From NCBI GenBank assembly GCA_963796455.1, contig CAWCLO010000002.1, positions 1 to 64,000 of the forward strand: 64,000 nt of DNA, read 5' to 3'. Both the position numbers and the translations under genes were made by a program. Every line of letters starts with the position of its first letter. Positions within the stretch are counted from its first letter, which is position 1. The notes beneath the pieces were generated by a model. That model searched no databases. It saw only the letters and a list, made by a program, of their open reading frames with translations, and was not told the DNA's origin. Source of the stretch: Candidatus Sulfomarinibacteraceae bacterium. GTDB taxonomy: Bacteria; Acidobacteriota; Thermoanaerobaculia; Thermoanaerobaculales; Sulfomarinibacteraceae. Positions 16,854 to 42,806 of the stretch are shown piece after piece.

Positions 16854-16854
16854 C

Positions 16855-19598: not shown

Positions 19599-19664
19599 TC
19601 TCTGCTCCTTTCGCGCAACCCGGAGCCAATTCCGAACTCCGAATTCCGAACTCCGAATTCAAAT

Positions 19665-20291
19665 TCATTTTTCTTCTCTTCCATCAACTGCTTCGATGGC
19701 TGCCACTGCGGCCTGCCACCCGACATCGATGTCTTTTTCTTCGCCGCCGAGATAGATCCGCCCCATCGAACCAAAGGCCCGAACCTCGAGGACGTTGATG
19801 TTGGCCGCCTTTTCCGCCTCGTTGGCGGCCAGGGCCGCATAGGCGGCAGGCTCGACCTCCATCACATACATGGTCTGGCCGGGGATGATCATGTTGCCGT
19901 GGCGCATCCGGTTGATGAGCTGGACCTGATGATCATCGAGGTGACGAATCACCTGGCTGGACAAAATTTTGGGCTTTCGGCGGTCGGTCTCTTTGAGCCC
20001 GATTTCGGCCAGGATGGCCTCTCCTGCGGCACGGGTATCGGCCTGTTCCTCGGAGTGGACCTCGAGCAACCCGTAATAGCGCTCGACGATCTGCATTCCT
20101 GGCCGGACGTGGGTCGCCTTGAGCGCCACGTCGGTGAGGCGGTTGATCTCGATACCCGGCGAGATCTCCACATACAGGGATGTGTCGCCCGCCAACGGCA
20201 GAAAGCCTTGCGCCGTCGTACCGAGAAAGGCCGCATACTGTGGCTGAAGAGAGTCGAGAAAGACATACGAGCGGAGGTCAATACGATTCAC
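19665..20291 (-). CDS. BMC tandem-domain shell protein, CcmP-like (double-stacking BMC-T)
   Basis: [13 protein letters not shown]...[11 protein letters not shown]...[11 protein letters not shown]...GRIYLGG. GTG start after RBS AAGGAG. Confidence 0.92.
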
Positions 20292-21108: not shown

Positions 21109-21647
21109 GATGCTTTCCCCGATCGCAGATACCGCTCCTCGACCTCGGTGATCTTGGCCACCCTCTGGGCGTGGCGATCCGGTCCCCATGGGGTCGCCAG
21201 CCATTCGTCGACGATCTGACGGGCGAGATTCGGACCGACAAGACCGGCTCCAAGGGTGAGGACATTGGCATGGTTGTGCTCGCGGCTGTTTCGAGCAGAG
21301 GACAGGTCGTAACAAAGAGCCGCGCGGACTCCCGGGACCTTGTTGGCAACCATTGCGGAACCGATTCCGGCCCCGTCGATGATGATGCCCCAGCGGCAGA
21401 CGCCGGTTCCCACCAGATTGGCGACCGCGTGGGCGAAGTCGGGATAATCCACCGCATCGGTGGATGTGCAGCCGCAGTCGTGAACCTCGAGATTTTGAGC
21501 GTGAAGGTGTTTCAGCAACTGTTGTTTGAGGCCGTATCCGCCGTGGTCGGAGCCGATGGCGATGGTCTCGGCTCCATGCTCGGTAGCGCCCATCACCTCA
21601 TCGACGACGCGCGTCACGAGGTCGCGGATATCTGATTCAGTCGTCAT
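21105..21647 (-). CDS. rpiB: RpiB/LacAB-family sugar-phosphate isomerase with N-terminal extension
   Basis: IGSDHGG; VDYPDFA; ANKVPGVRAA; SREHNHANVL; RHAQRVAKI. Confidence 0.92.
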   Translation of the reverse strand: MTTESDIRDLVTRVVDEVMGATEHGAETIAIGSDHGGYGLKQQLLKHLHAQNLEVHDCGCTSTDAVDYPDFAHAVANLVGTGVCRWGIIIDGAGIGSAMVANKVPGVRAALCYDLSSARNSREHNHANVLTLGAGLVGPNLARQIVDEWLATPWGPDRHAQRVAKITEVEERYLRSGKAS

Positions 21648-21650
21648 GGA

Positions 21651-22322
21651 TCACCAGGCCTTCCAATCGGCGGGTGGGGACGATTGTTTCGGGAGCGGGC
21701 GTGAGGGACCGGGAAGCGGTTCGGTTGTGTGGTCTCTCTCTTCGAGCAAGAGCAGATAGGATCGAAGCTGGTCGATGGCGGCGTCCAGTGGTGCGACACT
21801 CTGATCGACCCGTGCCTGCAGAACCGCGCCCTCCATGGTGCTCAGGACGGTGCTCGCCAGGGCCGCTCGATCAAGACCCTTTGGCAGGCGTGGCCCCGCT
21901 TCCTCGAGCAGGGCTTCAACCCTGCCGCTCCAGCTTGCAAAGAGCTTGGCGATCCGCAGCCGAACGCGGGGATAGCTGTCGGACATCTCCGCGGCCAAAG
22001 CGCCCATCGGTGACCCGAGGCCGAAATTGCTGTCGCGGAGGTTGCCGCGGTAGATGTCGAGGATCGCGAGCACCTGCTCGATGGGGTCATCCGTGCGCAG
22101 GCGTGCCGGGCCGAAGATCTCGCTCTCAAAGAGCTCTTCGACGTGATCGACCACCGCGAGTACGAGATCTTCTTTGGCCGGAAAGAAGTGATAGAAGGAG
22201 CCGCTGGTGGCCCCAGCCTGTTGGATGATCTCGTTGACTCCGGTCTGAGCGTATCCCTGCCGCCAGAACAATTCGGCGGCGGTGGTGATCAGCCGTTCTC
22301 GAGTCGTCGTTTGACGGGGCAA
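21651..22322 (-). CDS. TetR/AcrR-family regulator (NemR/LmrA-like)
   Basis: RERLITTAAELFWRQGYAQTGVNEI...GSFYHFFPAKEDL. Ends 3 nt before rpiB. Confidence 0.92.
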   Translation of the reverse strand: MPRQTTTRERLITTAAELFWRQGYAQTGVNEIIQQAGATSGSFYHFFPAKEDLVLAVVDHVEELFESEIFGPARLRTDDPIEQVLAILDIYRGNLRDSNFGLGSPMGALAAEMSDSYPRVRLRIAKLFASWSGRVEALLEEAGPRLPKGLDRAALASTVLSTMEGAVLQARVDQSVAPLDAAIDQLRSYLLLLEERDHTTEPLPGPSRPLPKQSSPPADWKAW

Positions 22323-22638: not shown

Positions 22639-23550
22639 TCATGGCAACGGTTTCTCGAAGAGTTCCTGTATGACCTCTGCAGCCCCCGGCTCGTTGCGGA
22701 AGTGGAGATTGTAGGCTGGAACGATTCGAACAAGCGTGTCAATGGTATCGAGACATCCAGCCATCAGCTTCTCATCGAACCAGGGTATGGAGGTCGTGGG
22801 AAAGAGCTGGTGGGCCGCCGCCGCGGCGTCGATCCTTTCGAGCCGGTTCTCGGGGGCCTGGTGGAGGAAGACTATGGCGCTGAAAGAGGCGCTCTGATCG
22901 GCCGCCACCAGGCCTTCACCGGCCCACGGCGTTCCGAAGAGCACGGGTTGACCCTGGACCAATCGGGCGACCAGCCGGTCGTCGCTCAGGCGGACGGTGT
23001 CTTCGTCCGAAGGCATCAAACCCATGAAGGTGGTCTTTCCGGCTCCGGATCGGCCGATGCAGGCCACACCGCGGCCGTCGCGGGCCACCCCAGCGGCGTG
23101 AATGATGCAGCCTTGCTTTCGGCTGAGAATCATCATGGTCAGGATTTGGTCGACGGGATAGCGGAGGGGGTTTGAAATCGAGCGGCCGTCGGCGGTCTGA
23201 TCGAGCAGTTCCGGTGCAAAGATCAAACGGACCGTGTCGGGATCGCCGCCGAGGCGAGCCAGCCACCAATAGCGGTCCTCATCGATCGGTGATCGGAAAG
23301 CGAGGATGGTCTCTTCGCCGTCGCGCAAGGCCTGCCAGGTCTCGCCGCTTTCAAAGAACACCGGCCAAGCGGGATCGAGTTCGGGATCGGCGAATTCGAG
23401 GATGACCGGAATTCGATCGATGCGGGACGACGACCGTGGCTGATCAACAAATTTCCGATAGATGGAGTCGTCCTCGGTGATCAGGACGTCTTCAGCCGTC
23501 GTCACCACGAATTCGAGACCGCCAATATGAAGCGAAAGCGACCGACTCAT
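22639..23550 (-). CDS. HPr-kinase-related P-loop protein (ScmC-like), putative peptide kinase
   Basis: IIHAAGV...IGRSGAGKTT (Walker A)...LSDDR...GTPWAGE. Abuts the PqqD gene. Confidence 0.75.
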   Translation of the reverse strand: MSRSLSLHIGGLEFVVTTAEDVLITEDDSIYRKFVDQPRSSSRIDRIPVILEFADPELDPAWPVFFESGETWQALRDGEETILAFRSPIDEDRYWWLARLGGDPDTVRLIFAPELLDQTADGRSISNPLRYPVDQILTMMILSRKQGCIIHAAGVARDGRGVACIGRSGAGKTTFMGLMPSDEDTVRLSDDRLVARLVQGQPVLFGTPWAGEGLVAADQSASFSAIVFLHQAPENRLERIDAAAAAHQLFPTTSIPWFDEKLMAGCLDTIDTLVRIVPAYNLHFRNEPGAAEVIQELFEKPLP

Positions 23551-23880
23551 TCAGCCATTGTCGGTGGGGACATCTTGAATGACAACCAAGCCGAGCTCTG
23601 CAAGCTCGCTGACGAATTCGAGCAGGTCGCGCGAGGCTGTGCTTTCATCGACTTCGAACTGAGCAACCACCTGTGTCACGATTTCAGCGATCGAGAGCTT
23701 GCCGTCCATGGCGGCCCAGACGAGTTCGCCGACCTCGTCGAGAACGAAGAGCTGTTGCATTTCCGCCAGTTCGCCGCGAACCGGAACCAGAATCATGTCG
23801 CCGGCGATTTTCCGCGGCACGATTTCTTCGGCCCGTGCGGGTATTGCCCCAAGATTGATGGGGTCGTCGGTCTCAGACAT
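23551..23880 (-). CDS. PqqD-family RiPP recognition element (RRE)
   Basis: IVPRKIAGDMILVPV...LFVLDEVGELVWAAMDG...FEVDESTASRDLLEFVSELAELGLV. Confidence 0.92.
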   Translation of the reverse strand: MSETDDPINLGAIPARAEEIVPRKIAGDMILVPVRGELAEMQQLFVLDEVGELVWAAMDGKLSIAEIVTQVVAQFEVDESTASRDLLEFVSELAELGLVVIQDVPTDNG

Positions 23881-23889
23881 CGTCGAGCG

Positions 23890-24054
23890 TCAGGACCCCG
23901 GCTTGGAGCAGGGGATTCCGCGGCAGTTCGCGCCCCTCGGTCCGCTCTGAGTGCCGATCTTGCATCCCGCCGCCAATACCTCGTCGGCAACAAGTCCGAT
24001 GCGTCTCAAAGTCGGCTTCTCATAGGGCCGCTTTTTCTTTTTTTCGTTCTTCAT
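23890..24054 (-). CDS. Putative RiPP precursor peptide, 54 aa (MKNEKKKKRPYEKPTLRRIGLVADEVLAAGCKIGTQSGPRGANCRGIPCSKPGS)
   Basis: The ATG overlaps the radical SAM stop (ATGA) and follows RBS GAGGAAGG. Basic leader with YxxPxL, small-residue core with 3 Cys. Sits between the rSAM and PqqD genes. Confidence 0.85.
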   Translation of the reverse strand: MKNEKKKKRPYEKPTLRRIGLVADEVLAAGCKIGTQSGPRGANCRGIPCSKPGS

Positions 24055-25160
24055 CGCGATCCTTCCTCGAATGCCCGCGCAGCCGCCCGCATTTGCGGGT
24101 CCTGCAGTGCGCGCCAGCGAGCCTTGGCGGTATCGCAAACATAGTCCGACTTCACGTCCTCGGCACCATGTTCCTGATCGTGGAACCCGGGGCAGCTTGC
24201 GCAAGCCCGCTGCAAATCGCACCCGGCACACTCATAGTCCGCCCGCGGTTTTTTGTCGTGCAACTCTCCCATTTTTTCCGACCACAACGTCGCAAAGTCG
24301 GATTCCAGGAGATTGTACTTGTACCGCGTCGTCATCATACACGGATAGAGCGAGCCATAAGGGTCGATATAAAAACCGGTGACGCCCGCACCGCAGACAT
24401 AGAGCTTGTCGGCAGGGGCAGGGGTCGACGGCTTTTCGAGATACTCGAGCCACGACGACACGGCGCGAGGATCGGCGAGTTCGATCTGGACCACGTCTTT
24501 CGCCGGAACCCGGAGATCGAGAGGTCTCTTGTCTGATGTGTGGAGGCAAGGAAAAATGGCCGCGTCGATCCGCATCACGAGATCGAATTCCGAGGCCAGA
24601 TCCCGCATCAGATCGGCTTCGTGCGCGTTGAGGCTCATGAGCACTGTTTTCAGCCGGACCTCGAAGGTGCCGACCTCGACCAGGCGCTTGATGCCTCGCA
24701 TGCATTTTGCAAAGGAACCCGGTATCTGGGTGATTTTTTCGTAGGTTGCAGCGGTCGCTCCATAGACCGAAACCTCGACCGATGTCGGCGGCAGTTCTCG
24801 AAAGAGTTCGATGACCTTCTTCGTCACCAGCACACCGTCGCACATGATGGTCACCAGGAGCCCCGCCTCCTTGGCGTGGCGATAGACCTCCGCGAAATCC
24901 TTGCGCATCATCGGGTCGCCACCGGTGATGGTCAGATAAAGACACCCGGCGGCGGCAATCTGATCGATGATCTCGCAGACCTGCTCGGTGCTCATCTCAC
25001 GGTCGCCGGCAAAGCGTTCTTCGCCCTGGCCGAGATAACAGTGCACGCACTTCAAGTTGCATTTTCGGGTGAGTTCGATCATGCCCGATACCGGTACGCG
25101 GTCGGAAACAACAGTGTTGTTGAAATGATCGATCCAATCGGAATTGATCATAGGTCTCAT
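24051..25160 (-). CDS. Radical SAM/SPASM-domain peptide maturase
   Basis: ELTRKCNLKCVHCY (CxxxCxxC); TGGDP. C-terminal 7-Cys SPASM pattern (CGAG...PC...CAGC...CASC...C). Start at 25160 or 25151. Confidence 0.93.
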   Translation of the reverse strand: MRPMINSDWIDHFNNTVVSDRVPVSGMIELTRKCNLKCVHCYLGQGEERFAGDREMSTEQVCEIIDQIAAAGCLYLTITGGDPMMRKDFAEVYRHAKEAGLLVTIMCDGVLVTKKVIELFRELPPTSVEVSVYGATAATYEKITQIPGSFAKCMRGIKRLVEVGTFEVRLKTVLMSLNAHEADLMRDLASEFDLVMRIDAAIFPCLHTSDKRPLDLRVPAKDVVQIELADPRAVSSWLEYLEKPSTPAPADKLYVCGAGVTGFYIDPYGSLYPCMMTTRYKYNLLESDFATLWSEKMGELHDKKPRADYECAGCDLQRACASCPGFHDQEHGAEDVKSDYVCDTAKARWRALQDPQMRAAARAFEEGSR

Positions 25161-25182: not shown

Positions 25183-28100
25183 TCACCATTCGACCGTTGT
25201 GGCCGGGTCGCCGAGGAGGATGAACTTGTAGGGCATCGTTGCATTACTTTCTGCGTCCTCGACATAGGCCATCAAGGCCTCGCGGACCGATTGACCAATC
25301 GTCGCCACCTCGCCGTCGTTGATGACCGAAGCGTGGTATCTCCCAAGAACCCGCGAATCGGCATTGAGGGCGTAGGCCGAAGGTGACCATACCGCAATCG
25401 AGCCTCCGTTCGGGTTGAGAAGGAGGGCCTCGGACAAAGTGTCGTAGCCCGGAACATCAAAACGACCAACGATACAACTCAGAGCCGTCAGGAATGGGGT
25501 TCTCTCCGAGTTATTCATCGTCGCGGCGTTTTCGGTAATGATCAAACCCTCGTCGGCAAGACGGTCAAAACCGCCATGACCGAGGAAATTGACCAGAATG
25601 GCTCCCTTGGTCATGGTGTCGAGCGTCAGTTGCCAGGCTTCGTCGATTTCGTAGTCCTCCAGAAACACCCGTTGAATCGAGTATTCGGGAGGCATGGCGC
25701 CGATCAATTCTTCGATGTCATCGGAGAACTCACCACCGAGATCCGAACTGTCCGCGAGCCACAGGGTGTGGCGTTTCCACGAATCCGATGATCCTTCGAA
25801 GACCTCGATCTTGGCCCGATATTCCGCGAGTTCATCTGCAGATTGTGCCGGGAGCCGACCGATGGCCACTTCGGGCACGCCATCGCCCCCGTCCCAGTCC
25901 GCGAACAGATTGTCAGACGGCACCAGCCCGTCATCGGTGACAACCATCAACGAGGGAACAAGATCTTCTTCAACCCCGACACCTTTGTGATCCAGAGAGC
26001 CGTCGCCGGCCAGAAAAACGAATTCCGGCTTCTCCGTCCAGTTCTCCGAAGCGTGTTCGAGGAATCGTCGGATGGCCCACGGGTTTTTGATGCCCCCGTT
26101 GAATTCATCATAGATATCGACGGTTCTGGCGACCACCGAACTCAGACCCTGCTGGGATCGATAGGCCGCCAGCATGGTTGCCTCGGCCTCGAGTCCTTCG
26201 CCCGCCACCACCACATAACGCCCCTGGTTCGAGCTGTCTGCGAGGCTGGAAGCATAATCGGTGACGACCGCCACCGGGTAGAGGGCGGCGGAGGAAGTGG
26301 TGGCCAGGAAGGGGAAGATTCTCGAATCAGTACTGAACTGGACTGCGAAGCTCCCGCTGTCTTCCACCACGTTTGCCAGATCCAGGATCACCGGCCGCCG
26401 TGGGTCGGTGAGGTCGAAGACCGTGATGTCATCAGTTGAAAAACCGGTCACGGTGATTTGAGTCTGTCCGTCGCCGGATGCGAGCAGGCGATCGTCCACG
26501 GCAGTGTAGTCACGGCGATAACGGATGTCGAAGGAGTCGAGGTAGAACTCGTCGAAGTCGAGGCCATCCGCCAGCAGGGCGGTGATCTCGACCGTGTTGT
26601 CGCCGTCGTTGAGTAGTGACTGCGGGAAAGCTACCTGAAGATCATAGGCGTCGTGACCGCCCCACGAAAAGGTTCCCCCGAGCTGCGTATTGTTGAGTCG
26701 AATCTGGACTTGATGATTCAGCGGCACTTCGCTCATGTAGGAACCCTGGAAATTGACCGTCAGCAAGCCCTCTCCGGCGCCGGAAACAGCGCCGGGTGTC
26801 GCAACGGAAAATGTCTTGCTCGCCACCGGTTCGCCCGAGTAGGGGAAGAAGAAATCCCAGAACCAATAGTCGGCTTCGGGATCGGTCATGACCGAGGTCA
26901 GGGGCCACTGGTCCTCTTCGATGTGGAGCATGTTCGTAAAGCTCGACTCCGCAGCCGGTAGCGTCGTGCCCGCTTCCCGCCGGGCCATCGGTTCACCGTG
27001 GCCGAAGCCGATCCAGTAGATATTTTCATCGGTGTAGATGCTGTCGATGGACTCACCGAAGAAGAAGAGACCGGAGTTGTCGACGGCGGCCGTCCAGGTG
27101 ATTCCGAAATAGACCTGCGCCTTTTTGGTCTCGGGCTCCCAGGCCGAGGTGTCGCCGCTTTCGAATCCATCTCCAAAGAGCCCGAATGGAGCAAGGCTTT
27201 CGTCACTCCCGGCAGCGATCCAGAGATTGCCCGCCCCGATCCATTCGGCGATGGTGTTTTGATCAACATTGAAGGCGGTGGCGAGTTGGTCGCCTGACAA
27301 CCAAATCAAACCGTTGTCGCGGACCACGACCTTGACGAGACCGGATGGCTCGCCGGCTGGTACCGCTTTGCTCGCCGTTGGTTTGCGAATCGAACTCGAG
27401 TTGGCGAGTCGTGAGCTGCCGGCGGCCATGGCTTCGGCCGTTTTGTGATTGCCGTCGCGCTTGGTAGCCGTGACCGTGATCGGACCGAGGACCGATCCCG
27501 ATCCCCAGACGTCGAGTTCCCTCACGATATAGGTCAGCTGATCGCCGGTCTTCGCATCCCGATCGATCACGGTATAGGTCCCACCGGGCAGCGAACCCGG
27601 AACGGCCTTGATCAACCCATCGTGGACCCGCGAGAAATGATCTTCGCCCTCTCGCAGCCGGAGCAGCTCATAGCCGATTGTTCCGACCTCGACCGCGGTT
27701 CGCCATTCGACCACAACCGTTGAGTTGACGGCGAATACATCGAAGGAGGCGAAAACGGCCTTGGTTGCCGCCGCCACGAAATTGGTTGCCGTCACGCTGT
27801 CCTGGTCTGTCGAGTTTGTGGAGAGAATTGTCAAAGTGACGGGGTCACGCGCCGATCCCTGGAGCGCATCAACGTCGCGTCGAAGTTCGTAGGCCAGCGC
27901 GCCGCCGGCCGCCAGGTTCACATCGGGCTGGTTGTCGGTGTCGGTGTCGTAGCCGGGGGCGATGCTGTCCCAGGTCCCGTCACCGTCGGTGTCCTCTGCG
28001 ATCTCTTGATCGGGAGTGCCGTCCGAGTCGGTGTCGATCCACAGCTCGGTCGGGTGGTTATAGCTGTCGAAGCCGTAGAACCAGGACGCCGTGATGTCGA

Positions 28101-31100
28101 GATTCATGACATCAGATGAACCGGCGAAGTTGCGGGCGGTGCCAGGAAAGACGGCCGTCCCACCGGCATTCACGTTGCGGGTGCCGCCGCCCGAAAGATC
28201 GAGGACAACCGGCGGTCGCACTGTTGTGGTGTCCGAGGCGGTGTCGAAGTCATTGTCCGGGTCCGACTGCGCTGCGGCCGTCAGATGCACCACATCGACG
28301 GTGTAGTCCGCCGTGCCTCCGGGCACGTCCACTACCAGAAATACGAGCTGCGATGCACCGTCGGCAAGTTGGGCCGTGTTGGTGATCGCGATGTCCACGC
28401 CGTCGGTGTAGACGCCGTCACCGTTCGAGTCCCAGTAGAAGGTCGAAGTAAACGCGCTTGGTGGCCCCTCGCGCGCCGCTTGCAGGTTGAATGTTTCCGG
28501 TGCACCGGTGTTGTTGATGATGACGTGAGAATACACCGCCGATCCACCGGCGGTGGAAACACCGGAGTTGTCGGGCAGGAAGATAATCGGATCGAGACTG
28601 TCGACAGCGATCGTCTCATCGGTTGCAATGCCCGCAAGACCTGCATTTCGGCCGGAGGTTGCGATGAGTCCGGTCGACTCGGTGTCTCCCGAAGATGCAC
28701 CGCTCGGGATCGTGACTCGGAGCTGGTACTCGATCAACCCACCGGGTGCCAGGGTGCCGGTATTGACCGTGACTCCGCCATCCCACATGCCATCGCCGTC
28801 GGCATCGCTGGCGATGACCACACCCGAACCCGGGTCGACCAGGTCGACCGGCCAGCCTTCTTTGCTGGACAGGGTGATCTCGTAGGAGTCATCTCCCTCG
28901 CCGGTGTTGATGATCTCGTGAGCGTAGGTCACGACTGAGCCCACAAGGTCGAAGCCGGCATTGTTGTACTCCACAACCACCCCGGCGCGAACCACGTCGT
29001 CGGTCACCGAAGCGAGCCAAGGACCGGGTTGCTGGACGGTGGTCAGCGTGGCGTTGTTTTGGATCTGGGTGATGCCGCCCGCCAACGGATCATCGACGAC
29101 GACCTGAAAGGTCAGCGTCATGGTCGCGCCTGCGGCCAGGGTGTAGCCTTCGCCGCCGGTGAGCAGATTCGGCGGGCTGCCGGCAGGCGCTGAAACCTGA
29201 GTTGAGATCCTGAGCAGAGCCGCATTGGCTGCCTCGCCGTTGTAGGACTCGGCGGTGCGTTGGCAGGCAGTGGAGGCGCATCCCGTCCCGGCCTGGATCA
29301 TGATGACGATGTTGTTGCCACTGACCCAACCCGGACGATCGACGATCTCCTGGATGATCGACGAGAGATCCGGTGTGATCTGTTTCTGGCTGACCGTTCC
29401 CCACGCGGGTGGGTTCCAGGCGACGGTGGCGGTTGTCGCCGGGCGATTCGAAATATCAGAATTGGTGGTTGTGAAGGTCGCCGCGGTGTCGGAGTCCTGG
29501 CCGAAGATCGAAACATTGGTGGTTCCGCTGTCGGTCTCGTCGACTTCGAACTCGATCTCGGCCGCCGAGATCGTCGTGCCAGGTGCAATAGCGACATTCT
29601 GAAAACGCATCCCGACGATCTGCTGGGTTCCGCCGTCAAAGACGACCTCGAGATCGGTGCTGCCGAGACTCATTCCGCCGGTGCCGGCGTTTTCTTCGGC
29701 GTCGTCGTTTCCGGTCGATACGCGCACCGAGCTCGCGACAATCGGCAGGTTGACCTGACTCGAACCGGCGACATAGGAGGTGCCCGTCGGCACCGCATCG
29801 GTCACCGTGATTCCGGTCTGAGTGGTTCCGGTGTTGTTGGTGATTTCGAGGGTGTATGTGACGGTCTGACCGGGTGAGACCTCGTTGTCCACCGCGTCGG
29901 AGGTTTTGGTGAAGATCAACGCCGGTTGTTGGTAGCCGACCGAGGGAGCGACCACCGTGCCGCCGGGAACGGTTGCGATGGTCTGGGGATCGTTGGCGGT
30001 GGTCAAAAGGGCGCCGGTGGGAAAGTCGGGATCCGTTTCGTCCACGTCGAGAATCGCCGACGCGCCCGCCACGACGGCGGTGTAATTCCCGGCCGCGTCG
30101 GTGGTGACGATCTGGGTCGAGGAAATGGATTCGTTGGTGAGGAAGGACAGGGTCGCCGAATTGAAGGTCCCGACGTCGCCGGGCGCACTGTCGGCGACAC
30201 ATACCGACCACGGACCGACCGGGGTCGTCCCGTTGAAGCCGGCCAGGTTGGGCAGCCCGCCGGCCGTATCGGGGGCCGGAACATAGGAACAGATACCGTC
30301 GACCGAGCAGATGTCGGTTCCGACCGCTCCGAGGGTTTCGGCGGAGGGCCCGCCGCCGCCATCATCAAAAGTGACGGTGGCGCCGGTCCAGTTGGTGCCG
30401 TAGCCATAGGGGGTGTCCTGCCCGGTGTCCGGTGCGGTGGAATTGGGGCGATTCATGGCGGCCAATATCTGGCCGCCGGGGCCGAAGATCTTGATCGTCA
30501 GATCGCCGACCCATGTGTGGGTGAGGGCCATGTCGAGATCAAGGTCGAGGATGCTGGGAGTCGGGCCGAAATCTCCGGCGAGCACGTTGAGGGCGCAACA
30601 GGTCATCGAGGCCTGGGTGCCGTTGTAGCCGTTGTCGGGAATGGCGGCACCCGGGGTGCAGCTGTAATTCTGCCGGGTTACGGAGCTCACCTCCACATCC
30701 ACATTCGGGATGTTCGGTTCACCACCGTCTTGGACCCCGTTGCCGTTGACATCGAGATAGACGTGGCCGTTGATCTGGGCGGTGCCGACGATCGGCACCT
30801 GGACAGCGTTGGTGTCGGTGGACGGTGTTTCGTCGGAAGCGAAGATCGCCTGGTTGAAAACAACCTGGCCCGCCGTTCCCGGATCCACCTGGGCTCTGAA
30901 TCGAAGGGTGACGCTTTGTGATGAGCCCAGGCTGGCCAGCCGGAACTCGAGATCGGTGAGATTGAGGATGCCTTCGGCGCCCGAACCTTCGTCTCCGTCA
31001 TCGGCGTCGGTCAAAGCGGTGAATGGGCCGCTGTTGAGCGACCACTGCATCGATCCGGCCACATAGCTCGTGTTGAGAGGGAACTGGTCGATGATCAGCA

Positions 31101-33826
31101 CATTGTCGGCGGCGGCGGGGCCCGAGTTGGTAAGCACGATGTCAAAGGTCATTGCCTCGTAAGGGTGGACTGCGACCGGGTTGCCCACGATGCTCTTGAC
31201 TGCGGAAAGGATGGGCCCTTCGACCACCGGTTCGACCAGATTCGAGAGAAAGTACGGGGTCTCGGTGCTCTCGTAGCCGGCCTGGTTGGGAATCAGGGTG
31301 CCCGCGACGGCTGTCGGGTTGACCTTGACCTGGAAGGTCAGGGTCGCCGAAGCACCCGCTGCGACGCTTGCCGCGGTCCATTCGATCGTGTTCTGGCCGG
31401 GATCAAATGAACCCGTGGTAAATGGAGAGGTCCCGGTCGGGTTGGAGCAGTTGACGGGATCGATGGTGGCGTCGCAGAAGGTCGTGTCGGGCGGGATCGC
31501 GTCGCTGATGACGACGTTGGTCTCGGCGGTCGTCGTGCTGTTGTTCGACACGGTGAGAGTGAAGGTGAGGACGTCGCCGGGAGCGGCTGCCGCAAGATCG
31601 ACGGTCTTCGATATATCGGCGTCGGTCTGGACAACTGCCTCGTAATCGGTTGGCGCGAAAACGCTGCCGCCGAGGGTTCCGCGCGCGTTGCCCTGGTTGA
31701 GCAGACGGCGTGGAGGACCGCCGGGCAGCGCCGGAATCCGGATCTGATAGCTGACCGTCAAGGTGTTGTTGGTATTGAGTTGGAAACCGACACCGCATGC
31801 TCCATCGATGTCCCAGGTCAGCCGGCTGCACTGGTCGTCAGGCGAGGTCGTGACGCAATCATCAAAGGTGGGATCGGCGGTTCCCTGGGTGAGGTTGGGA
31901 CAGGTGATCAGCGTGGTTCCGGAGACGTAATCGTCTTCCCCGTAGACCGCGATCGGCAAGAGATCGAAGACCTCGATATTGGTCAAGGGTCCGAAATCGT
32001 ACGATTTGACGGTCAGGGTGTAGGTGACGATACGGTCGTCCGGGTCGGCGGGGTCGAGGGGAACGACCGGCGTGTCGGCGACCTTTGTGATCGTCATCGC
32101 CGGGTCGAGGAAACTCTGCTGAACCGGATAGACCGTATAACCCGTATCGAGTCCGAATCCACCGCCGTAGGCCCACTCGGGATTCTGGCCCCAGGAGACG
32201 GCGATCGGTTTGTTGGAGATGATGCGGGTTCCGGTCATATCGAGATCGCCGGTCGGGTCGAGAACCGTGAGGGCCGCCGGGGTGTCGACCACGTAGGTAT
32301 TGTTGGCTTGCGGAGCGGTGTCGGCCGTGCCATCGCCGTCGAGATCAACTTGATCAAAGGTCCCGTCGTTGTCGAGATCGAAGTTGACCAGCGTGTTGTC
32401 GGCGGTGGCGGCGACAAAGACCGGGTTCGCCAGTTGGCTCGAGGTCGTGATGTCGGCGTTCGCCGGGGCGTGTCCGACGGTGTAGGAGAGCGTCAGGAAT
32501 TTTTTGGCCAGCCACGAGTGGCCCCAGTCGCTTCGGGCGGTGTCGTAGTCGTAAGCGGTAACTCCCCAGAAGGTACGATCGGAGGTCATCCGGACCGTCG
32601 AATAGGGTGCGATGTCGCGGCCGGGCGCGAGGTCCTGCATCGAGCGCATCGAATTCGCAGGAATATTGACCGAATACGAGCCCGAACTGTCGGTGATGGC
32701 GACATCGATGGCGGTCAGCTGGTCGGGATTGAGGATGTAGATATTTGCCGGTCGGTCCTGTGGTGCGCCGCCGGTGGTCGGGCCGGCGGTGGGGTCGTCG
32801 CCGGGCGCCGTGGTCACATAATCGGTGGAGTGGAGGATGTCGGGCAGCAGCGCGTAGTTCCGGGTCGCCCAGGTGCCCTCACCACCGGTGAAAATCATCC
32901 CGGTGATCGGCGCGGTCGTCGAAACCTTGGTGCCGGCGTTGATCGTCAGCTGCAAAGTCGGGCTGCGAGGTCGCATCGATAAAGCCCATCGAGCTCCAGT
33001 GCTCACCGCGGGCGAGATCGAAGGAAACTGTGCCGGCTCCGGGGCTTTCGACGGTGATCGAGGTGTCCTCGAAGGCCACCAGATCGAGTTCGACGTACTG
33101 AAACGGTTCGGTCACGGTGTTGAGTGCGTACAGGTCCTCGCCGATCGGCACCGAATAGGATCGTGCCGCCTCGACCGCCTGGCGGGAGAGAATTTCGATG
33201 GCGCCGCCGATGTACTGGCTCAGAGGCCACTGATTGTGAATCAATGAGAGCGGGCCACCGGTGGTGAGCACGAGGTCGCCGCCATCAAAACGCACATGGC
33301 TGGAGTTTCTCGCCAACGGCACCGAGCAATTGAGTGCCCCCGGAATGACGGCTGGGTCGCAGCCACCGGTCAATCCCTGGTCGGAAGCGAAGTTCACATA
33401 GTCGCCGGTGCCGAGTAGATCGGTGCCGCAGGCGATGTTGGAGTTGTACGTGCAGACATCGCCGTTGCTGAGATCACCATCGCCGATGACGATCGTCGAG
33501 GTCTGCAACATGGAGGGATCAACGGTCGGAAAGGTGTCGAGTTCGGAGTCGAGTCCATCTTCCCAGTGGTCGTAGAAAATGACCTGATTGGCCGCCGAGA
33601 CGGTGGCTGTGACAACCGAGTTGGTCCCACTCGGGAACTGCGGCCCGCCTTCGGCATTCTGGACCCGGTCCATCATGTCCCACAGATGCTCTTCCCACCC
33701 GAGCACGAAGTATTCCTGGACGCCGGTCGGCACCATCTGTGCGCCGAGATTGGTTGCGAACAATATCGGACCCAACAGCAGGGCGATGCGCAGTATCGAC
33801 CGTTGGTGTCTATCTGTCGCTTTCAT
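25183..33826 (-). CDS. Giant (~2,880 aa) secreted multidomain protein: IgGFc-binding-like, DUF11 repeats, SdrD-B-like, P-proprotein domain, C-terminal C25 (gingipain-family) peptidase; one frameshift near 32955
   Basis: ORF 32879-33826 (signal peptide) joins ORF 25183-33006, supported by collinearity with the paralog. Motifs: GTRIISNKPIAV; PGDVLTFTLTV/PGQTVTYTLEI; HVYLDVNGNGVQDGGEP; THTWVGDL; DIYDEF, VAIGRLP, NFLGHGG, ALSCIVGRF, LLGDP. Confidence 0.88.
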
Positions 33827-34077: not shown

Positions 34078-37000
34078 TCAGGCCCCCGAGGTGGAGATTC
34101 TCAGGTCGCCGGCGCGTCGTCTGCGACCTGGGCCCGACCAACCGATCCTGACTGCGGGGTCTCCTGAGAAGGGCGAAAATCGGACCAAGGACGAATCGAC
34201 GTTTTCATCGGCGGCATAGGACTCCAGGGCGGCACGAATCGAGGCGCCGATGGTCTGCGCTCGACGACTGGCGATGGCCGTCATATGGTGAAACCCAAGT
34301 TGACTGGCGTCTTGGTTCATCGAGAAGGCCGCGGGCGCCCAGACTCCGACCGATCCTCCATTGGGGTTGATCAACAGCGTTTCGGACAGGATGTCGTAGT
34401 CGGGAATGTCGAATCGGCCGACCATGCAGGTCAGCGCCGCCAGGAATCGAGACTGTTTGCCGCTGTTCATCCCTGCCGCATCCTCATTGGTCAGTAGGCT
34501 GTCGTTTGACAGGAAGTCGAGCGCACCGTGACCGAGAAAGTGAACCAGGACGGCGCCCTCATCCCAGCGCTCAAGGGTTGTTCCCGGGCCCTGGTGCCCC
34601 CCAGTCGATCGGCGAGGATCCTCTCGCGGAGGTATCCCGGTGGTGTCTTGTCGACCATCACCTGGATGTCGATTGGAAACTCACCGCCCTCGTCGGGTTC
34701 ATCGGCGAGCCACAGGGTCCTGGTTCCCACTCTCCGTCATCGGACTCGAAGGCCGCGACTTTTTCCCGATATGCCTGCAATTCGGCCGGGCCGTGTGCCG
34801 GCAGCCGACCAATCGCTATTTCCGGCACACCGTCTTCTCCGGTCCAATCGGCCAGGAGATTGTCGCTTGGGACCAGACCGTCACCGGTCACCGTCATCGG
34901 CGCGGGGATGACGCTATTGCCGGCGCCCCAGATATTGCGGTAGTCGAGGGTGCCGTCCCCGGCGAGAAATACGTGTTGAGGCGCTTCGGCCCAATTCAGT
35001 GCCGCGTAGTGCAGGAAGTCGCGAATTGCCCACGGGCTCACGACACCGCCAGAAAACTCGTCGTAGAAGGCATCAACGGTGCGACGACCGAGCTTGATCC
35101 CTGCGTCTCGCGGTAATCTGCATAGACCTCTGCCTCAGCTTCGAGACCAGGCCCGGCGATGATGATGAATGAACCGCGGCGAGTCCGGTCGATCAGACCC
35201 GCGGCTGTTCCGGCGACAACCAATTCAGGTTCGATCGTCGCAGCCGATGTGGTGGCCACAAATGGGAAGGACTGCCGGCGGTCGAGAATCCGACCGTGTA
35301 CGACCCGCCATCGGAATAGATACGGACCGGGTCGAGCCCCACCGGGTGCAGCGGATCCGAGAGATCGAAGACCGAGATGTCCGATGACGAAAATCCGGAA
35401 ACGAAGACCTCTGGTTGGCCGTGGCTGGACGCCACGAGGCGGTCATCGAGGGCCCGGTAGGAGCGATCGTATTGAAGCTCGAAAGAGTCAAGGTAGTACT
35501 CGTCAAAGTCGAGGCCATCGATCAGCAGCGCGGTGATTTTGATCGTGTTGTCACCATCTGCGAGCAACGCCTCCGGGATATCGAGCGCGAGGCGGTGCGC
35601 GTCGTGGCCGTTCCACGTCTGGCTGCCACCGAGCAAGATGTTGTTGAGCCGCACCTCGGCCACATGGTTGGGTGAGATCTCGCCGATGAATGATCCCTGG
35701 AGATTGACGATCAGGTGTGAGCTGCTGGTTCCGGTCGCAGCGGGAGCGGCAACCGTGAAGCTCTTGCTGACCGACGGTTCGCCGTCGTAGGGGAAGAAGT
35801 AGTCCCACATCCAGAAGTCCGCTTCGGGATCGCTCATGACAGCTGTCAAGGGCCACTGATCTTCTTCGACGACGAGCGCCCTGAAAACTGCCCTCGGTCG
35901 GCGATGCTTCGGTCCACGCCGCCCGGGTGGCCATCAACTGACCGCTTCCGTGGCGGATCCAATAGACGTTGTCATCGGTGTAGATGCTGTCGATGCCCTC
36001 GCCCCAGAACAGAATCCCGTTGTTGTCGATCAAAGGCTGCCAGGCTATACCCTGTGGCGTGTCGGATCCTTCGGCCGAGGGAAGCCATTTCACCGTGTCA
36101 CCGGTCTCGAAATCGTCAAAAAAGATATCGAGGGCTTTGGGTCCCGCGTCGACGCCGGTCTCGATCACCAGGCTGCTGTCGGCAATCCAACTGGAGACCG
36201 TCGCCATCGGTGCCCAATGCCGTCGCCAAGGCCTGGTTCGAGACGGACACCAGACCGGTTTCCCGGACCTTGACCTTGGCCAGACCCGATGGCGCCGGGC
36301 TCGTTTTGATCTGCGGGGCTGATGGGGTGCGGACCGAACTCCGGTTGGGGCTTCGCGATAAACCGGTAGCCGGGACAAAGGCCGCCTTCTCCGCCGAAGC
36401 GTGCTCGCGAATCGTCAGATCGAAGGGGCCGAAGGTGCTGCCGGTGCCCACACGTCCCACTCGTGGAGGATGTACACGACCCGCTCGCCCACCGTGACCT
36501 CTGGGTCCACCAGGCGGTACGTGCCGCCCTGGAGGTGGTGACGCAGACCTGGGATGAGGTTTTCTGTGACATTTTTGTAGTTCTCATCACTTTCCCTCCA
36601 CCGCCACAGGTCGAAACCGATTGTTCCCACCTCGGCTGCGGTCCGCCATTCGACGATCACCTGAGAGCCGACGGCATAAGCATCGAAGTCCGCGAGGACT
36701 GCAGCGGTGGCTGCCGCCACCAGGACGGTTGCGGTGATGCTGTCCTGGTCGCTGGTCGCCTGGGAGACCGCCGTCAAGGTCACCGGGTCGCGAGAGGAAC
36801 CCTGCAGCAGATCGACCGGCCGCTGGAGTTCGTAGGCGATCTCTGAGTCGGCCGCAACAAACACATCGGGTCGGTTGTCGGTATCCGTGTCAAACCCCGG
36901 GGCAATCGTGTCCCAGATCCCGTCACCCTGCGAATCCTCGGCGATCTGGGTGTCGGGGACGCCGTCGGCATCGGTGTCGATGACCAGGAGCGTCGGGTGG

Positions 37001-40000
37001 TCGAGTCCGTCCTGTCCCCAGAACCACGCCTCCGAGATCGAGAAATCGTATATCGATCGCCGCTGTCCTGGAGGCTCTTCAGCGTTCCAGGATAAACCGC
37101 CACAGCACCCGGATCCGCCGGTTGGGTACCGCCGCCGGAGAGATCGAGTTCGACTGGAGGCGAGATGGTGGTGGTATCGGTGGCGCTGGCGTAGATGTAG
37201 ACAGTGCATTCTTCGGTGACCGGGTCACAGACATTGTTGCGCGACACCGCACCGATGTGGAGCACATCCTCGCTGTCGGGGGCGGCAACGGGGAACATCG
37301 ACCACGGCGAAAAAACGTTGCGAGCGCCATCGGCGAGTTGCAGGGTGTTCGTGATCTCGACATCGATCCCAGGGCATAGACGCCGTCGTCGTTGGCGTCC
37401 CAGTAGAAGGCGAAGTCCCACCCGCTCTCGCTCCAACCGTTGAGATCGAAGGTGTCTGTGACGCCGGTGTTGTTGATGATCGTGTGGCTGTAGACCTCGG
37501 TGCCGCCGGCCGAGGCGACGCCGCTGTTGTCGGAAGAACTGCCATGCCGTCGAGATCACCCTGACCCACTACGAAAGTTTCGTCGGTCGCGATTTCGGAA
37601 ACGGTGGCGGTGTGATCGAAACAGCGGTCAGTGTCGTGCTCTCCTGGGCTCCACCGAGTTCCGGCCGGGACCGTCACCCGAATCTCGTACTCGATCAAAG
37701 CGCCCGGTGCCAGCGAGCCGGTGTTGACGGTGATACCACCGTCCCATGTGCCGTCTGTGAAATCGGTATCGGTGGCGATCGTCGCTCCGGAATCCGGATC
37801 GATCAACTCGACCACCCACCCGGCGGCCGGATTGGCAAAACCGAGTTCGCTGAAAGCCGTGACCTGGTAGGAGTCATTCACCAGACCGGAATTGATGACC
37901 TCATGGGCGTAGGTCACCGTCGACGCTGACACGGCGTCGAATTCGACAAAGCCGGCGTTGTTGTACTCGACCACGACGCCGAGCCGGATCACATCGTCGG
38001 TCACCGACGCATCGAGGGGGCCTTCCTGGTCGGTGGTGATCGTGGCTGTGTTTTGAATCTGGGTGATTGCCGGAGCCAGATCGGGGTCGAGGACGACGTC
38101 GAAGGTGACCACGATCGAACCGGTGGGCACGAGCGTCACGCCGTCGCCGGCGTCCACCAGCGCCGTCGGATCGCCGCCTGTGAAGATCGTGGAGGCGGCG
38201 ATGCCCGAAAAATCGATGCCCTGCACCAAGGCTGAAAATCGGCACCCGACCTGCGACGTTCGAGCCGGAATCAGTCGAGGGGTTAAATAGCGCGCCGAAG
38301 AAATCGGGCGGCGGACAATTGTCCGAGGGTGCCATCGGCCTGGCCGTTGGTCGACCAGCGCCATCCGCTGGTGAAATCCGCTCGCCGGCGGATCGACCGT
38401 GAGATTTGCCGCGTCTCCGTCGGCTTTGAAAAGATGTTCCGCCGCCAGCGAGGGGTGAGTCATGGTCCAGACCTCGAAATCGACGGCGGTGCCCGAATTT
38501 CGGTGCCGACCGCGACCAGGGTCTCATTGACTTTCGAGCGGCTCCGTTGCCGAGAGCCATCGATGACGCCTTCTGCCTGGTTGCCGATGCCGTTTCCGTT
38601 GGCGTGGCCGGTGCCCCACACCCAGGTGTTGTCGCGTACAACGGATGAGATGGCTGCGGTGTTGTATTCGCCGGCGGCGTTGAGCCCGTTGCCGCCGTTG
38701 GTGCCCTGGGACCCGGGTTCGCTGTACCGTCCACTCCGATCCCCATTCGACGACCATCACCGGTGCGGTGGCCGCCGTGAGGTTGACGGCGGCGTTGGAG
38801 CCGTCGCGGGTCCAGTTGATCTGGTCCGAACCCGATCGGAAGAGTCGAGCGTGGCAGACGGGATGATCCCGGTCGGTGGTTTCATCCGAAAAGCACCCGG
38901 CGCCGTTGAAGCCTCCCATCAGAAGAACCTGGTTGATGTCACTCCAGGCTGTCGCGGCGGTGTCGTTGCCGCTCTCGGTGGCACCGCCGTGGACGACATC
39001 CTCGACGTCAGCAACTCGAATCCGGCGGTGGTGCAGTCGGCGATGCACTCGACAACCGTGACCACCCCGACCCAGTCATCGGCGCCATCGCTGCGCTGGA
39101 TGCGAAGAACATCGGAGCCCGACGACGCCCCAAGATCGCCGGTGCCAAAGGGGTCCTGAGTCAGCCGGGCATAGTCCGCTTCGGGGTCGCGGTCACCGTT
39201 GGTGCCGCCGTTGCCCGCCGAGCCCTGAACGATGGCGAAATAGTTGGCAGTGAGATTCTGGTCGAAAGTGAGGTCATAGACCGTGCCGCCAAAGACTCCA
39301 GGCGCGATGTAGTACTCGCTGACCCGGAAGACGGGGTTGTTGACCGTGACCTGGGTCGATCCCGCGACGATCGAGGTGCCGGTGGGGAGGGGATCGTCGA
39401 GCAGCGACGGTGGTCTGGTCGATACCGGTGTAATTGGTGGCTTCGATGGTGTAGGTGATGGCGTCCCCGGGGAAGACCTCGCCGCCGGCGCTCGAGGACT
39501 TGAAGAAGGAGAACGGCAGCGGTGTGTAGCCGACTGGGGCCGTCGCCACCGTGCCGCCCGAGATCGCAACCGCGGGTTGCGGATCGTTCGCGGTGCTGAG
39601 AAGCGCTCCATCGGGGAAATCGACATCGTTTTCGTCGACGTCGGCGGTCGCCGCTCCGGCTTCGACGGTCACCGACCAATCGCCGTTGCTGTCGGTGCTG
39701 ACGATCTGTGGGTTGCCCATTGAAATCGACAACCACGACATCGATGTTGGCGAGTCGGGTTCGCCGGCGTCCTGCGTTCCGTTCCCATCGGTGTCGCTGA
39801 AAACGTGACCGGTGAGGACGGCGTCGCCGACGATCGGGACCTGGACCAGATTGGTGTCGCGCGGCGGTGTCTCATCCGAGGTCACGGTCGCCTGGTTGTT
39901 GACGACCAGGCCCTCCGTGCCTGGGTTGACCGTAAGTAAAACCGGAAGGTGATGTCCTGTCCTGCACCGAGGACCGGGATACTCTAATTCGAGCCGGTCG

Positions 40001-42806
40001 ACAAAGGCCGTTCCTTCGTCGGCGTCGGCGGCATCAGTCACCGGGTTGAAGGTACCGACGTTGAGGCCGCCACTCCATCGATTCGGCAAGATAGATGACG
40101 TTGGCCGGGAAGGGGTCGATGATGAGCAGGTTGTTGGCGTCACCGACGCCCGTGTTGCGGACGAGGATTTCAAAGCTCGCGATTTCGTTTGGATGGAGAA
40201 TCGACGGCCCGGTTTTCAACAACTCGAGCCGGGGGCCGTTGACCACCGTCTCGACCTCGTTGGATGTGATGAGGGGTGTCTGGTTGCTTTCGTAATTCGC
40301 GCTGTTGGTGATCGCCGTGCCCGCCGCCGCCCCGGGGTTGACCAGCACCTGAAAAGTCAGAATCACCGGCCCGCCGACCGCGAGGTTCCCTACATTCCAG
40401 ACCACGGCGTTCTGGCCGGGGTCGTAGGCGCCGGGCCCAGGTCCGGTGGGATTGACGCAGGTACCGAGGGCAGGGTGGTTGCATCGCAAAAGATCGTGTC
40501 CGCAGGAATGACATCGGTGATGGTGGCACGGTTTCGGCGGCCACGCCGTTGTTATTCAGTTGAATGGTGTACGTCAGCACGTCTCCCGGGTCGGGCGGTC
40601 GCGAGGTCGACCGACTTGCCGATGGTGATGTCAGTCTGGGTGATATCGGCGGTGTCGAGCGGAGAAAAGACACTGGATCCATAATTGGCTTGGGCATGGG
40701 CCTCGTTGGTCAGGACCCGAGGGGTTCCGCCCGGAGCTGCGGGGATGTTGACCTGGTAACTGATAGTCAATATTTGGTTGGTATCGATCGAGTCAGGGCT
40801 CAGTGCCCAATCGAGACGGCCTGGCGACAGTGCGGGGTCAGTGGTGTCCTGAGCCAGATTGGGATAGGTGATGAGGGTGGAACCAGGCACATAGGCGGTC
40901 TCCGGGACGCCCAACGGCAACAGATCGAAGACCTGGAGGTTGGTCAGAGGCCCGAAATCGAAGGCCGTTACCGTGATGGTATAGGTGACCACGCCACCGG
41001 CGGTCGGGACGACGGAGGTGTCGACTTCCTTGTCGACCACCAGCACCGGATCGAGGAAGAGTTGGTTGGTCGGGTAGACGGTGAAGCCGGTGTCGAGTGC
41101 GACATCGCCGTAGCCGGTGAGATCGGTGTCCTGCCCCCACGCCACCGCCACCGGTTTGTTGGCGATGATCCGGGTGCCGGTGTTGTCGTAATCATTGGGG
41201 TCGAAGACGCGGAGCGAGGCCAGAGAATTGATCGGTGTAGACGTAGTTCGGCGTCGCCATCGCACAAAGGATCGGCGGCCCCGGGTTGATGAGACCATCT
41301 CCGTTGGTGTCGACCGCGTCGAAATCACCGTCGTTGTCGAGGTCGAGCCGGACCAGCGTGTTGTTCTCGGTCGCGGCCATAAACACTCCGTTGAAGATTG
41401 ATCGGGCTGGTTGACGGTGTCTGAGGTTCCCCGGTGCATGAGAAACGGTATAGTCGAGGGTGAGAAATTTTTAGGCCAGCCAGGAGTGCCCCCAATCATT
41501 GGACGTTGGCTGCCGTAGTCGTAGCCGAGACTCCCCAGAAATTGTGGTCCGAGGTGATCCTCACGGTGGAACCCGAGGCGATGTCGCGGGCCGTCGGTAG
41601 ATCCGCATCGAGGCCATCGAGTTGGGCCGGACATTGACGATTCGGTGGCCCGACGCTGTCGGTGGCCGTGATATTGACCGCCGACAGTGGATCAGGGTTG
41701 AATAGATAGATGTTGAGCGGCCTGTTGGCCCCGCTCGGCGGCGGGGTTGTCGCCGGGAGCCGTGATGACGTAGTCGGTGCTGTGGAGGATGTCAGGCAGC
41801 AGGGCGTAGTGACGGGTCGCCCAGGTTCCCTCGCCACCGGTGAAGATCATGCCCGCGATGGTGGAGGTGGTGGAGACCTTGGTGCCCGCGTTGATGGTGA
41901 GGGCCAGGGTTGGTTCGGCGGTCTCGTCGATGGCGCCCATGGAGCTCCAGTGTTCGCCGCGCGACAGATTGAAGCTGACGCTGCCTGCGCCGGGGCTCTC
42001 GACAGTGATGCCGGTGTCTTCGAAGGCAACCAGTTCGAGTTCGACGTATTGAAAAGGCTCTGTAACGGTGCCGTTGATGAAAAGATCCTCACCGATGGGC
42101 ACCGAGTACGAGCGCGCCGCCTCCACCGCCTGTCGCGGCAGGATCTCCGTGGCCCCGCCGATATACTGGGTCATGGGCCACTGGTTGTGAATCAGCGACA
42201 AAGGACCGCCGGTGGTCTTGACCAGGTCACCGCCGTCGTAACGTATTTCGGTGACTGTGCACGGGTCCGCGGCACACCGGCTGTTGAGCGGGACCGAGCA
42301 TTTGTCGGGCTCTCAGGCAAGGAGGCGCAACCAGCTCCGAGGCCCTGGTCGGAGTTGAAGTTCACATAGTCGCCAACCGCCAGGAGATCGGTTCCGCAGG
42401 CGATATTGGCGTTGTAGGTACAAACATCGCCGTTGCCGGGCACACCGTCACCGAGGACCCGGGTCGTGGCCTGGAGCACACCGATGGTGTCGGGAAAATC
42501 GACGAGACCCGTATCGATCCCGTCCTCCCAGTGGTCGTAGTAGAGAACCTGTCCGGTGGCGGATGCGGTTGCCGTCACGACCGAGTTCATACCCGATTGC
42601 AGGGGGCCCGAGCCCTCGGCGTCGACCACGCGATCCATCATGTCCCACATGTGCTGTTCCCAGCCGAGGACGAAATACTCCTGCACACCGGTCGGAACCG
42701 TCTGGGCGGTTGTGAAACCGGCCAGTGCGATGACGACGCAGAGGGCAGCGAAGACCCTGCGCAGGGATACGGGAAATTCAGAGTCGAGAGTCGGTCTTGC
42801 TTGCAT
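34078..42806 (-). pseudogene. Second giant DUF11/C25-peptidase paralog, broken by many frameshifts (pseudogene or sequencing error)
   Basis: Fragments are collinear with 25183-33826 throughout: VPTGVQEYFVLGWE, RQAVEAARSYSVPIGED, GTRIIANKPVAV, VIVEWRTAAEVGTIGF, DYFFPY, IAIGRLP, HFLGHG, LTCMVGRFD, GDP. Confidence 0.8.

Follow-up and report, generated by a model that had tools for sequence, protein, structure and literature searches.

Gene layout of the cassette

We analysed a 64,000-nucleotide (nt) stretch of DNA (the window; contig CAWCLO010000002.1 of assembly GCA_963796455.1, from a Candidatus Sulfomarinibacteraceae bacterium), in which four minus-strand genes encode a radical S-adenosylmethionine (rSAM)/SPASM enzyme, a 54-amino-acid (aa) precursor peptide, a PqqD-family protein and an HPr-kinase-like protein (Table 1). 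A preliminary description of the window had assigned these genes to a system for a ribosomally made peptide that is modified after translation (RiPP), and its coordinates, strand and spacing for all four were reproduced: the rSAM and precursor genes overlap by ATGA, 9 nt separate the precursor from the PqqD gene, and the gap between the PqqD and kinase genes is 0 nt. The precursor is hidden in a longer open reading frame (ORF), as that description had noticed, making up the distal end of a 113-aa ORF in the same frame whose start lies within the rSAM gene. The 54-aa peptide contains PYEKPTL, Cys31, Cys44 and Cys49 and ends in Gly-Ser. The four-gene set thus stood, but its boundaries had been drawn too narrowly, as the main frame of a gene for a giant DUF11/C25 protein of about 2900 aa in total ends 22 nt upstream of the rSAM start. 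Promoter and terminator scans returned 2 sites (0.9 expected) and 5 sites (2.3 expected), respectively, and gave no usable site. Below, G000 is the genome that carries the window, other G numbers are comparison genomes and L numbers are collected loci.

Table 1. Features of the cassette and of the adjoining giant genes, in window coordinates.
Feature	Coordinates	Strand	Description
Radical SAM/SPASM gene	24051..25160	minus	369 aa; Radical_SAM and SPASM domains
Precursor gene	23890..24054	minus	54 aa; basic leader, YxxPxL, ExLxxxC, three-Cys core ending Gly-Ser
YxxPxL motif, Tyr11-Leu16 (predicted to bind the RiPP recognition element)	24007..24024	minus	from alignment of 70 precursors
Putative core, Cys31-Ser54	23893..23964	minus	cleavage site putative; start may be Gly30
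Stand-alone PqqD-family RiPP recognition element (RRE)	23551..23880	minus	109 aa; PF05402, E 6e-15
HPr-kinase-like gene	22639..23550	minus	303 aa; H151, G166-x2-G169-x-G171-K172-T173, D190-D191
Giant DUF11/C25 protein, main frame	25183..33006	minus	2607 aa; DUF11 repeats, PorU-like region, C-terminal Peptidase_C25
N-terminal piece of giant gene	32879..33826	minus	other frame; signal-peptide-like start
Tandem second giant C25 paralogue	34138..42767	minus	split into many frames; 42-73% identity with copy 1

Conservation of the precursor and its neighbours

We gathered 186 loci, to which a metagenome scan contributed the best 80 of 560, and counted 129 distinct full-length family rSAMs, 93 of them with at least 0.5 kb of upstream and 1.4 kb of downstream sequence and 42 flanked on each side by 4.5 kb or more. 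The preliminary description had staked a RiPP-type cassette on a precursor ORF conserved among homologous loci. Using a search profile made from the leader and the first Cys only, we found a precursor in view beside 92 of the 93 rSAMs, together with a PqqD protein at 86 and a kinase at 88. At the 42 well-flanked loci, an S24/S26-type peptidase was present in 27, a C25 domain in 25 and a nucleotidyltransferase in 10, and a giant ORF runs off the locus end at 9 of the 17 loci without a visible C25 domain. These counts include kin and are descriptive rather than a test; the order of the cassette genes varies among loci, however, which suggests that their linkage reflects function over inertia.

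The precursor is a real gene under purifying selection, with 206 synonymous versus 30 non-synonymous codon differences summed over the 44 codons Tyr11-Ser54 of nine genus-mates compared with the window. A purine-rich, ribosome-binding-like stretch lies 5 nt ahead of its ATG, and it is single-copy in G000. We collected 118 distinct complete precursors, including some near-duplicates and a few that come from remoter rSAM subfamilies, after excluding ten matches (four cut by contig ends, two containing N, one false and three scoring below 15.5, two of which look genuine and end in Ser). The C-terminal residue was Ser in 115 and Thr in 3, compared to 11.6% Ser and 7.6% Thr at other core positions, and Gly preceded it in 89. 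Three Cys were present in 95 of the 118 cores, two in 17 and four in 6; Lys directly followed the first Cys (Cys1) in 90% of cores, and Gly stood at Cys1+7 in 64%. Alignment of 70 precursors gave the consensus YxKPxLxxxxLRPEEAVLGxCK-x5-GP-x4-C-x5-C-x3-GS, in which the leader Pro and Cys1 are invariant, the spacing between the leader motif and Cys1 is fixed, and Tyr, Cys2 and Cys3 are each conserved in at least 90%. Conservation of the leader Tyr, Pro and Leu bears out the RRE-type leader seen in the preliminary description. The window core has no Asp, Glu or aromatic residue, and 70 of 111 family cores have no Asp or Glu. The 70 aligned precursors had no Pfam match at E <0.01, with one weak match to StsA (E 0.001); in the ESM Atlas, neighbours of the precursor were unnamed hypothetical clusters at 0.92-0.93, and those of the rSAM were generic.

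The closest relatives of the rSAM, 78-81% identical, were labelled Ca. Sulfomarinibacteraceae or Thermoanaerobaculia, and 31 of 301 sampled Acidobacteriota genomes matched the family at E 1e-90 or better; other relatives carried the labels Kiritimatiellae, Lentisphaerae, Gemmatimonadales, Bdellovibrionales and others. A distant subfamily (L040, L041, L046, L049, L068, L071, L214 and L215) has rSAMs about 30% identical, a kinase-first gene order, and shorter leaders and cores whose last residue is again Ser or Thr; a C25 gene is a frequent neighbour. Loci L019 and L020 carry two or three family rSAMs each; L019 also has three tandem precursors whose leader is a WTDF variant and whose core opens with CC.

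Kinase-like and PqqD proteins

The kinase-like protein matched HprK_rel_B weakly (E 1e-6), and its family profile matched HPrK chains of the L. casei type over the P-loop and DD region (E 8e-6), whereas ABC transporters matched the P-loop alone. Among 26 aligned kinases, H151, G166, G169, G171, K172, T173, D190 and D191 were invariant or nearly so, with Ser or Thr at position 173, and these residues map one-for-one onto the H148-G163-G166-G168-K169-S170-D186-D187 motif of BsfK (PMC10368454). In lasso-peptide systems, PsmK and PadeK phosphorylate the C-terminal Ser of their precursors, after which PsmN adds a hexose (PMC6993621). Because all 118 termini are hydroxylated and the kinase motif is intact, we consider Ser54 a likely site of phosphorylation by this kinase, perhaps multiply so; the preliminary description had recognised the kinase-like gene correctly and had given it no role. 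The PqqD protein scored 55.8 bits against a cut-off of 23.4.

Radical SAM/SPASM enzyme

Both the Radical_SAM and SPASM domains exceeded their Pfam cut-offs. Best among solved structures matching the rSAM profile was SkfB (E 2.5e-28), followed by PqqE. The enzyme has a CX3CX2C motif at C34/38/41 and auxiliary cysteines at C256, C274, C323 and at C311, C314, C320, C342; those of CteB are C344, C362, C413 and C400, C403, C409, C432 (PMC10177961). They thus follow the scheme of a three-Cys first and a four-Cys second cluster (3+4) of the thioether maturases CteB, PapB and Tte1186, where the substrate chalcogen is bound by the first cluster (PMC10177961); by that paper the scheme is necessary, but it is not sufficient. 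With no Asp, Glu or aromatic residue in the core, PapB-type and lasso chemistry are excluded. The absence of an aromatic residue also rules out cyclophane chemistry. In combination with this core composition, the 3+4 layout and the SkfB match make a thioether the best guess, and we lean modestly towards an rSAM that forms thioether bonds between at least one core cysteine and carbons of the backbone or of side chains.

Pattern scoring found the motif of the second auxiliary cluster in 104 of 113 enzymes. The remaining nine (L009, L010, L012, L014, L015, L016, L018, L099 and L112) form one clade with shorter cores that lack the distal Cys, and their C25 protein has an extra C-terminal extension where its end is visible. 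Co-evolution of the second cluster with the third Cys was not shown by these data, which amount to one clade, one change and a single independent pair (p 1); a third Cys is also missing from four further cores whose enzymes are intact. At L075/L206 (G014, 96% complete), a frame break at about residue 190 interrupts the rSAM gene beside an intact precursor, reflecting either an error or a real loss.

The giant DUF11/C25 protein

The Peptidase_C25 domain of the giant protein scored 232 bits against a cut-off of 23, and the protein ends right after it without an extension. Its best matches among solved structures were PorU (E 6e-14) and gingipain R, and the His/Cys dyad, which is invariant in 48 of 48 aligned C25 domains, aligns with both; the NCBIfam models for PorU were not reached (212 of 420 and 157 of 450 bits). 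The N-terminal 300 residues lie in another frame, and because relatives L057 and L205 run through the same point in one frame, this break is probably an assembly error or indel. The fragmented second copy may likewise be an assembly error, or a pseudogene; two neighbouring C25 matches were also found in G001, G008, G021 and G024.

In L187 (6547-15798, plus strand; 3084 aa) and L141 (2839-5299, plus strand), an S24/S26-type peptidase domain leads a fused frame that continues through a hydrophobic segment into the giant C25 protein. Similar fusions, with the giant cut by the locus end, were seen in L126, L136-L138, L140, L148, L150, L152, L154 and L155, and L193 has the S26 domain and a nucleotidyltransferase in one frame. 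Among 20 C25 neighbourhoods from relatives, several had no cassette gene in view, some had a kinase or PqqD gene only and some had a precursor.

A tail with the pattern F-x-D-G-F-E-S-G-x4-W-x3-P ends 32 frames of at least 190 aa on seven G000 contigs (for example L227-L246), compared to none in reversed decoys. It looks like a sorting or binding tag. The same motif is internal in the giant C25 protein (25183-33006), about 656 aa before its end; genomes of the window's family carry up to 130 matches, and it occurs in 32 of 36 of them versus 2 of 24 in the sister family. We rejected the idea that the cassette serves these proteins: G015 (96% complete) has 24 tails, no C25 and no family rSAM, and G053, G056, G031 and G028 have the cassette but no tail match.

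Directly downstream of the cassette (window 15029-22322, minus strand) are genes for a TetR regulator and for RpiB/LacA-like, deoxyribose-phosphate-aldolase-like, aldehyde-dehydrogenase-like and shell-protein-like proteins. Judged by eye, with TetR alone scanned, they form a bacterial microcompartment operon whose position is kept in genus-mates.

Absence of the S24/S26-type peptidase in the window's lineage

The window's form of the cassette is patchily distributed, being found in 10 of 25 genomes of the genus, and its gene order is kept in all ten (the lineage). Searches of G000 and of the nine genus-mates sharing this cassette form (83-97% complete) turned up no S26-type peptidase, whereas five of five control genomes gave matches at E 5e-23 or better; in G000, a local 57-sequence profile gave only a weak S24 match. 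Repeating the search over 61 genomes with fewer candidates scored had the same outcome, and G017, G018 and G022, which have a more distant subfamily, were also without a match. Because sister loci of the same gene order (L077, L083 and L196) carry the S26 gene on the opposite strand just after the kinase, the simplest reading is that the lineage lost it. An S26 gene was also not in view at L057, L105, L108 and L111.

We compared protein identities between pairs whose rSAMs are 0.77-0.85 identical. Within the lineage (n=14), conservation differed from that of outside pairs (n=89; PqqD 83, kinase 20): the core was 0.89 versus 0.49 identical, PqqD 0.47 versus 0.66 and the kinase 0.50 versus 0.67, with the limits that pairs overlap and that one soil clade dominates the outside set. 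Synonymous change in the lineage precursor is saturated. Thus, the core is nearly frozen while PqqD and the kinase drift, an observation that we regard as a lead.

The lineage leader may be cut by a B2-like peptidase encoded elsewhere in the genome, by C25 or by nothing. The G000 candidate, a B2-like peptidase of transglutaminase fold, maps to G000:C4:1241100-1241750 (L055, L056) beside a PqqD of its own, with neither a cyclase nor a precursor seen next to it. As a peptidase acting in trans this candidate is possible but unspecific, since all ten lineage genomes have it and so do 21 of 24 genus-mates, irrespective of the cassette they carry.

Comparison with known systems

The closest known system is that of the linear polyphosphorylated peptides (LPP; lppA-K-B-S-D-N; Popov et al. 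2026, PMC13381572), which shares the YxxP leader, a stand-alone RRE and an HprK-like kinase with an intact catalytic motif, and has no lasso cyclase; an archaeal-type, signal-peptidase-like leader peptidase and a nucleoside triphosphate (NTP) transferase like those of LPP are present in many family loci. LPP, described from Bacillota only, differs in phosphorylation at core Ser3, in the leader YxxPxVLxHQxIxFETxxS and in having a transporter (PMC13381572). The window cassette instead combines an rSAM and a giant C25 partner with a three-Cys core that ends in Ser; its leader departs from the LPP consensus, and its locus contains neither an S26 (signal peptidase I-like) peptidase nor an NTP transferase (nucleotidyltransferase) nor a transporter. 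All G000 matches to PF14907 lie on other contigs. Radical SAM, SPASM, C25 and gingipain go unmentioned in the main text of the LPP report (PMC13381572). The phosphorylated lasso peptides (paeninodin with PadeK, pseudomycoidin with PsmK/PsmN, and BsfK) share the YxxPxL leader, discrete RRE and kinase residues (PMC6993621, PMC10368454), and PadeA and PsmA share the C-terminal Ser (PMC6993621). Unlike these systems, the cassette has an rSAM, no cyclase or B2 gene and no Asp or Glu at core positions 7-9 for a macrolactam, and the Asn_synthase matches of G000 are on other contigs or more than 80 kb away. The cassette resembles an LPP or phosphorylated-lasso tailoring set in which an rSAM replaces the cyclase, but by these differences it falls outside both the LPP and the lasso families.

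SkfB (a sactipeptide enzyme) and CteB, PapB and Tte1186 (ranthipeptide enzymes) share the 3+4-Cys SPASM arrangement, a Cys-containing core and RRE dependence (PMC10177961). In contrast to them, the window system has a separate RRE gene and three Cys rather than CX3D or six-Cys patterns, with no acidic acceptor, and the family models score far below cut-off; the excerpted text of PMC10177961 describes no kinase or C25 partner for these enzymes. PorU, of type IX secretion, shares the C25 domain with its dyad and the PorU-like region before it and has been proposed to be sortase-like (PMC4560394); the giant protein, unlike PorU, is about 2900 aa long with DUF11 repeats, ends after the catalytic domain, stays below the PorU models and is linked to a peptide cassette.

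The preliminary description had likened the gene set to SynChlorMet and HPr-rel cassettes, which, with GeoRSP, we take from their NCBIfam/TIGRFAM model names to be sets of rSAM/SPASM, PqqD and kinase-like genes. As family membership this likeness fails, every model scoring far below cut-off (ScmE/ScmF 64 and 75 of 400 bits, ScmD/ScmC 28 of 100 and 15 of 125, HprK_rel_A 18 of 200 and HprK_rel_B 28 of 200); by model names, moreover, SynChlorMet has two rSAMs versus one here. In the literature searched (mostly open-access, supplements excluded), we found no characterised product of the family, in agreement with the preliminary description, and no publication joining an rSAM maturase with a lasso-type precursor kinase or a RiPP cassette with a C25 protease, no paper on SynChlorMet or on six TIGR accessions of related models, and, among the papers listed, no description of the FxDGFESG tail.

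Proposed pathway and rival explanations

Taken as a whole, the data can be explained by a RiPP maturation set for a cross-linked, phosphorylated three-Cys peptide, an explanation in which our confidence is evenly balanced. By analogy with lasso and LPP systems, PqqD would bind the YxxPxL leader of the precursor. The rSAM/SPASM enzyme would form one or more thioethers from core Cys, with Gly38 (Cys31+7) and Gly53 as the most conserved candidate acceptors, and the HPr-kinase-like enzyme would phosphorylate the terminal Ser, perhaps several times. In most of the family, the S24/S26-type peptidase would remove the leader; in the window's lineage, another protease would do so or the leader would be kept. 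Gene linkage suggests that the product is probably no free antibiotic but a cell-surface partner of the giant secreted protein encoded alongside it.

Several observations weigh against this explanation. The rSAM scored below every NCBIfam cut-off, and its best models, AhbD (117 of 500 bits) and MftC (116 of 265), describe enzymes that do not form thioethers; PqqE (73 of 381) and PapB (63 of 340) scored lower. Thioether chemistry cannot be read from a 3+4 cysteine layout by itself. Spacing between cysteines is variable, and the cores share no invariant acceptor residue. C25 genes occur without a family rSAM in G003, G042 and G027, no C25 was seen at some loci (L188, L199), and no exporter recurred among the 45 commonest neighbour clusters, whose representatives were read by eye and partly scanned. 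Finally, BsfK (PMC10368454) and LppK (PMC13381572) phosphorylate an internal Ser3 rather than the terminus.

If the cassette and kinase acted as proposed but the rSAM formed no thioethers, the cysteines could serve in disulfides or metal binding, and the enzyme could oxidise the Gly-Ser terminus in the manner of MftC or epimerise residues. MftC is the second-best NCBIfam score and covers rSAM residues 23-322, the terminal Gly-Ser is conserved as strongly as the cysteines, whose spacing varies, and the clade of nine enzymes without the second auxiliary motif still keeps the terminal xS. Against this stand the invariant Cys1 at its fixed distance from the leader motif, the odd number of cysteines (three) in 95 of 118 cores and SkfB as the best solved match, and we judge this alternative somewhat unlikely. 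That the rSAM is a non-peptide enzyme of heme or cofactor synthesis beside an incidental short ORF is barely credible: the top NCBIfam scores are indeed AhbD, NirJ2 and AhbC, but these lie below a quarter of their cut-offs and reflect a barrel match only, the enzyme did not reach equivalog level for AhbC/AhbD/NirJ, MftC or PqqE, and the precursor (92/93) and RRE (86/93) accompany the rSAM through several gene orders. Decay of the lineage cassette after loss of the peptidase, leaving no mature product, would agree with the missing S26, the low PqqD and kinase identities at equal rSAM distance and the patchy distribution (10/25 genomes). The core, however, is 0.89 versus 0.49 identical despite saturated synonymous change, the catalytic motifs are intact and all ten genomes share one gene order, making such decay very improbable.

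A further alternative gives the C25 domain a step in the pathway itself, either as the leader-cutting protease or as a PorU-like transpeptidase joining the peptide to the giant or another acceptor. The linkage between C25 and the cassette is tight and widespread, S26-C25 fusions exist, and the dyad is invariant in 48 of 48 domains. With no S26 gene found in any of the 10 lineage genomes, C25 would be the sole protease of the locus. Gingipains cleave after basic residues, and Lys follows Cys1 in 90% of cores. PorU, the best solved match (E 6e-14), has been proposed to be sortase-like (PMC4560394), but the corresponding model was reached at only 212 of 420 bits. In addition, a signal-peptide-like start is seen on the C25 protein but on neither the precursor nor the RRE, the cassette has no linked exporter, some C25 genes stand apart from any cassette, and the B2-like match present in 10 of 10 lineage genomes (its own PqqD beside it seen in G000) could cut the leader instead. 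We therefore regard a pathway role for C25 as doubtful.

Implications

A bolder proposal, and a quite improbable one, is that the cross-linked, C-terminally phosphorylated peptide is a ribosomal linker rather than a diffusible product, joined by C25 transpeptidation to the giant DUF11 protein and tied through its phosphoserine to an envelope glycan or lipid. If true, the linker would represent RiPP-based protein anchoring outside Bacteroidota, and loss of S26 would have left C25 as the sole cutting enzyme and frozen the core. For the RiPP maturation set as such, the window's lineage offers a naturally occurring leader-peptidase knockout, which could show whether the leader is removed and whether C25 participates, in a family that is widespread and apparently unstudied.

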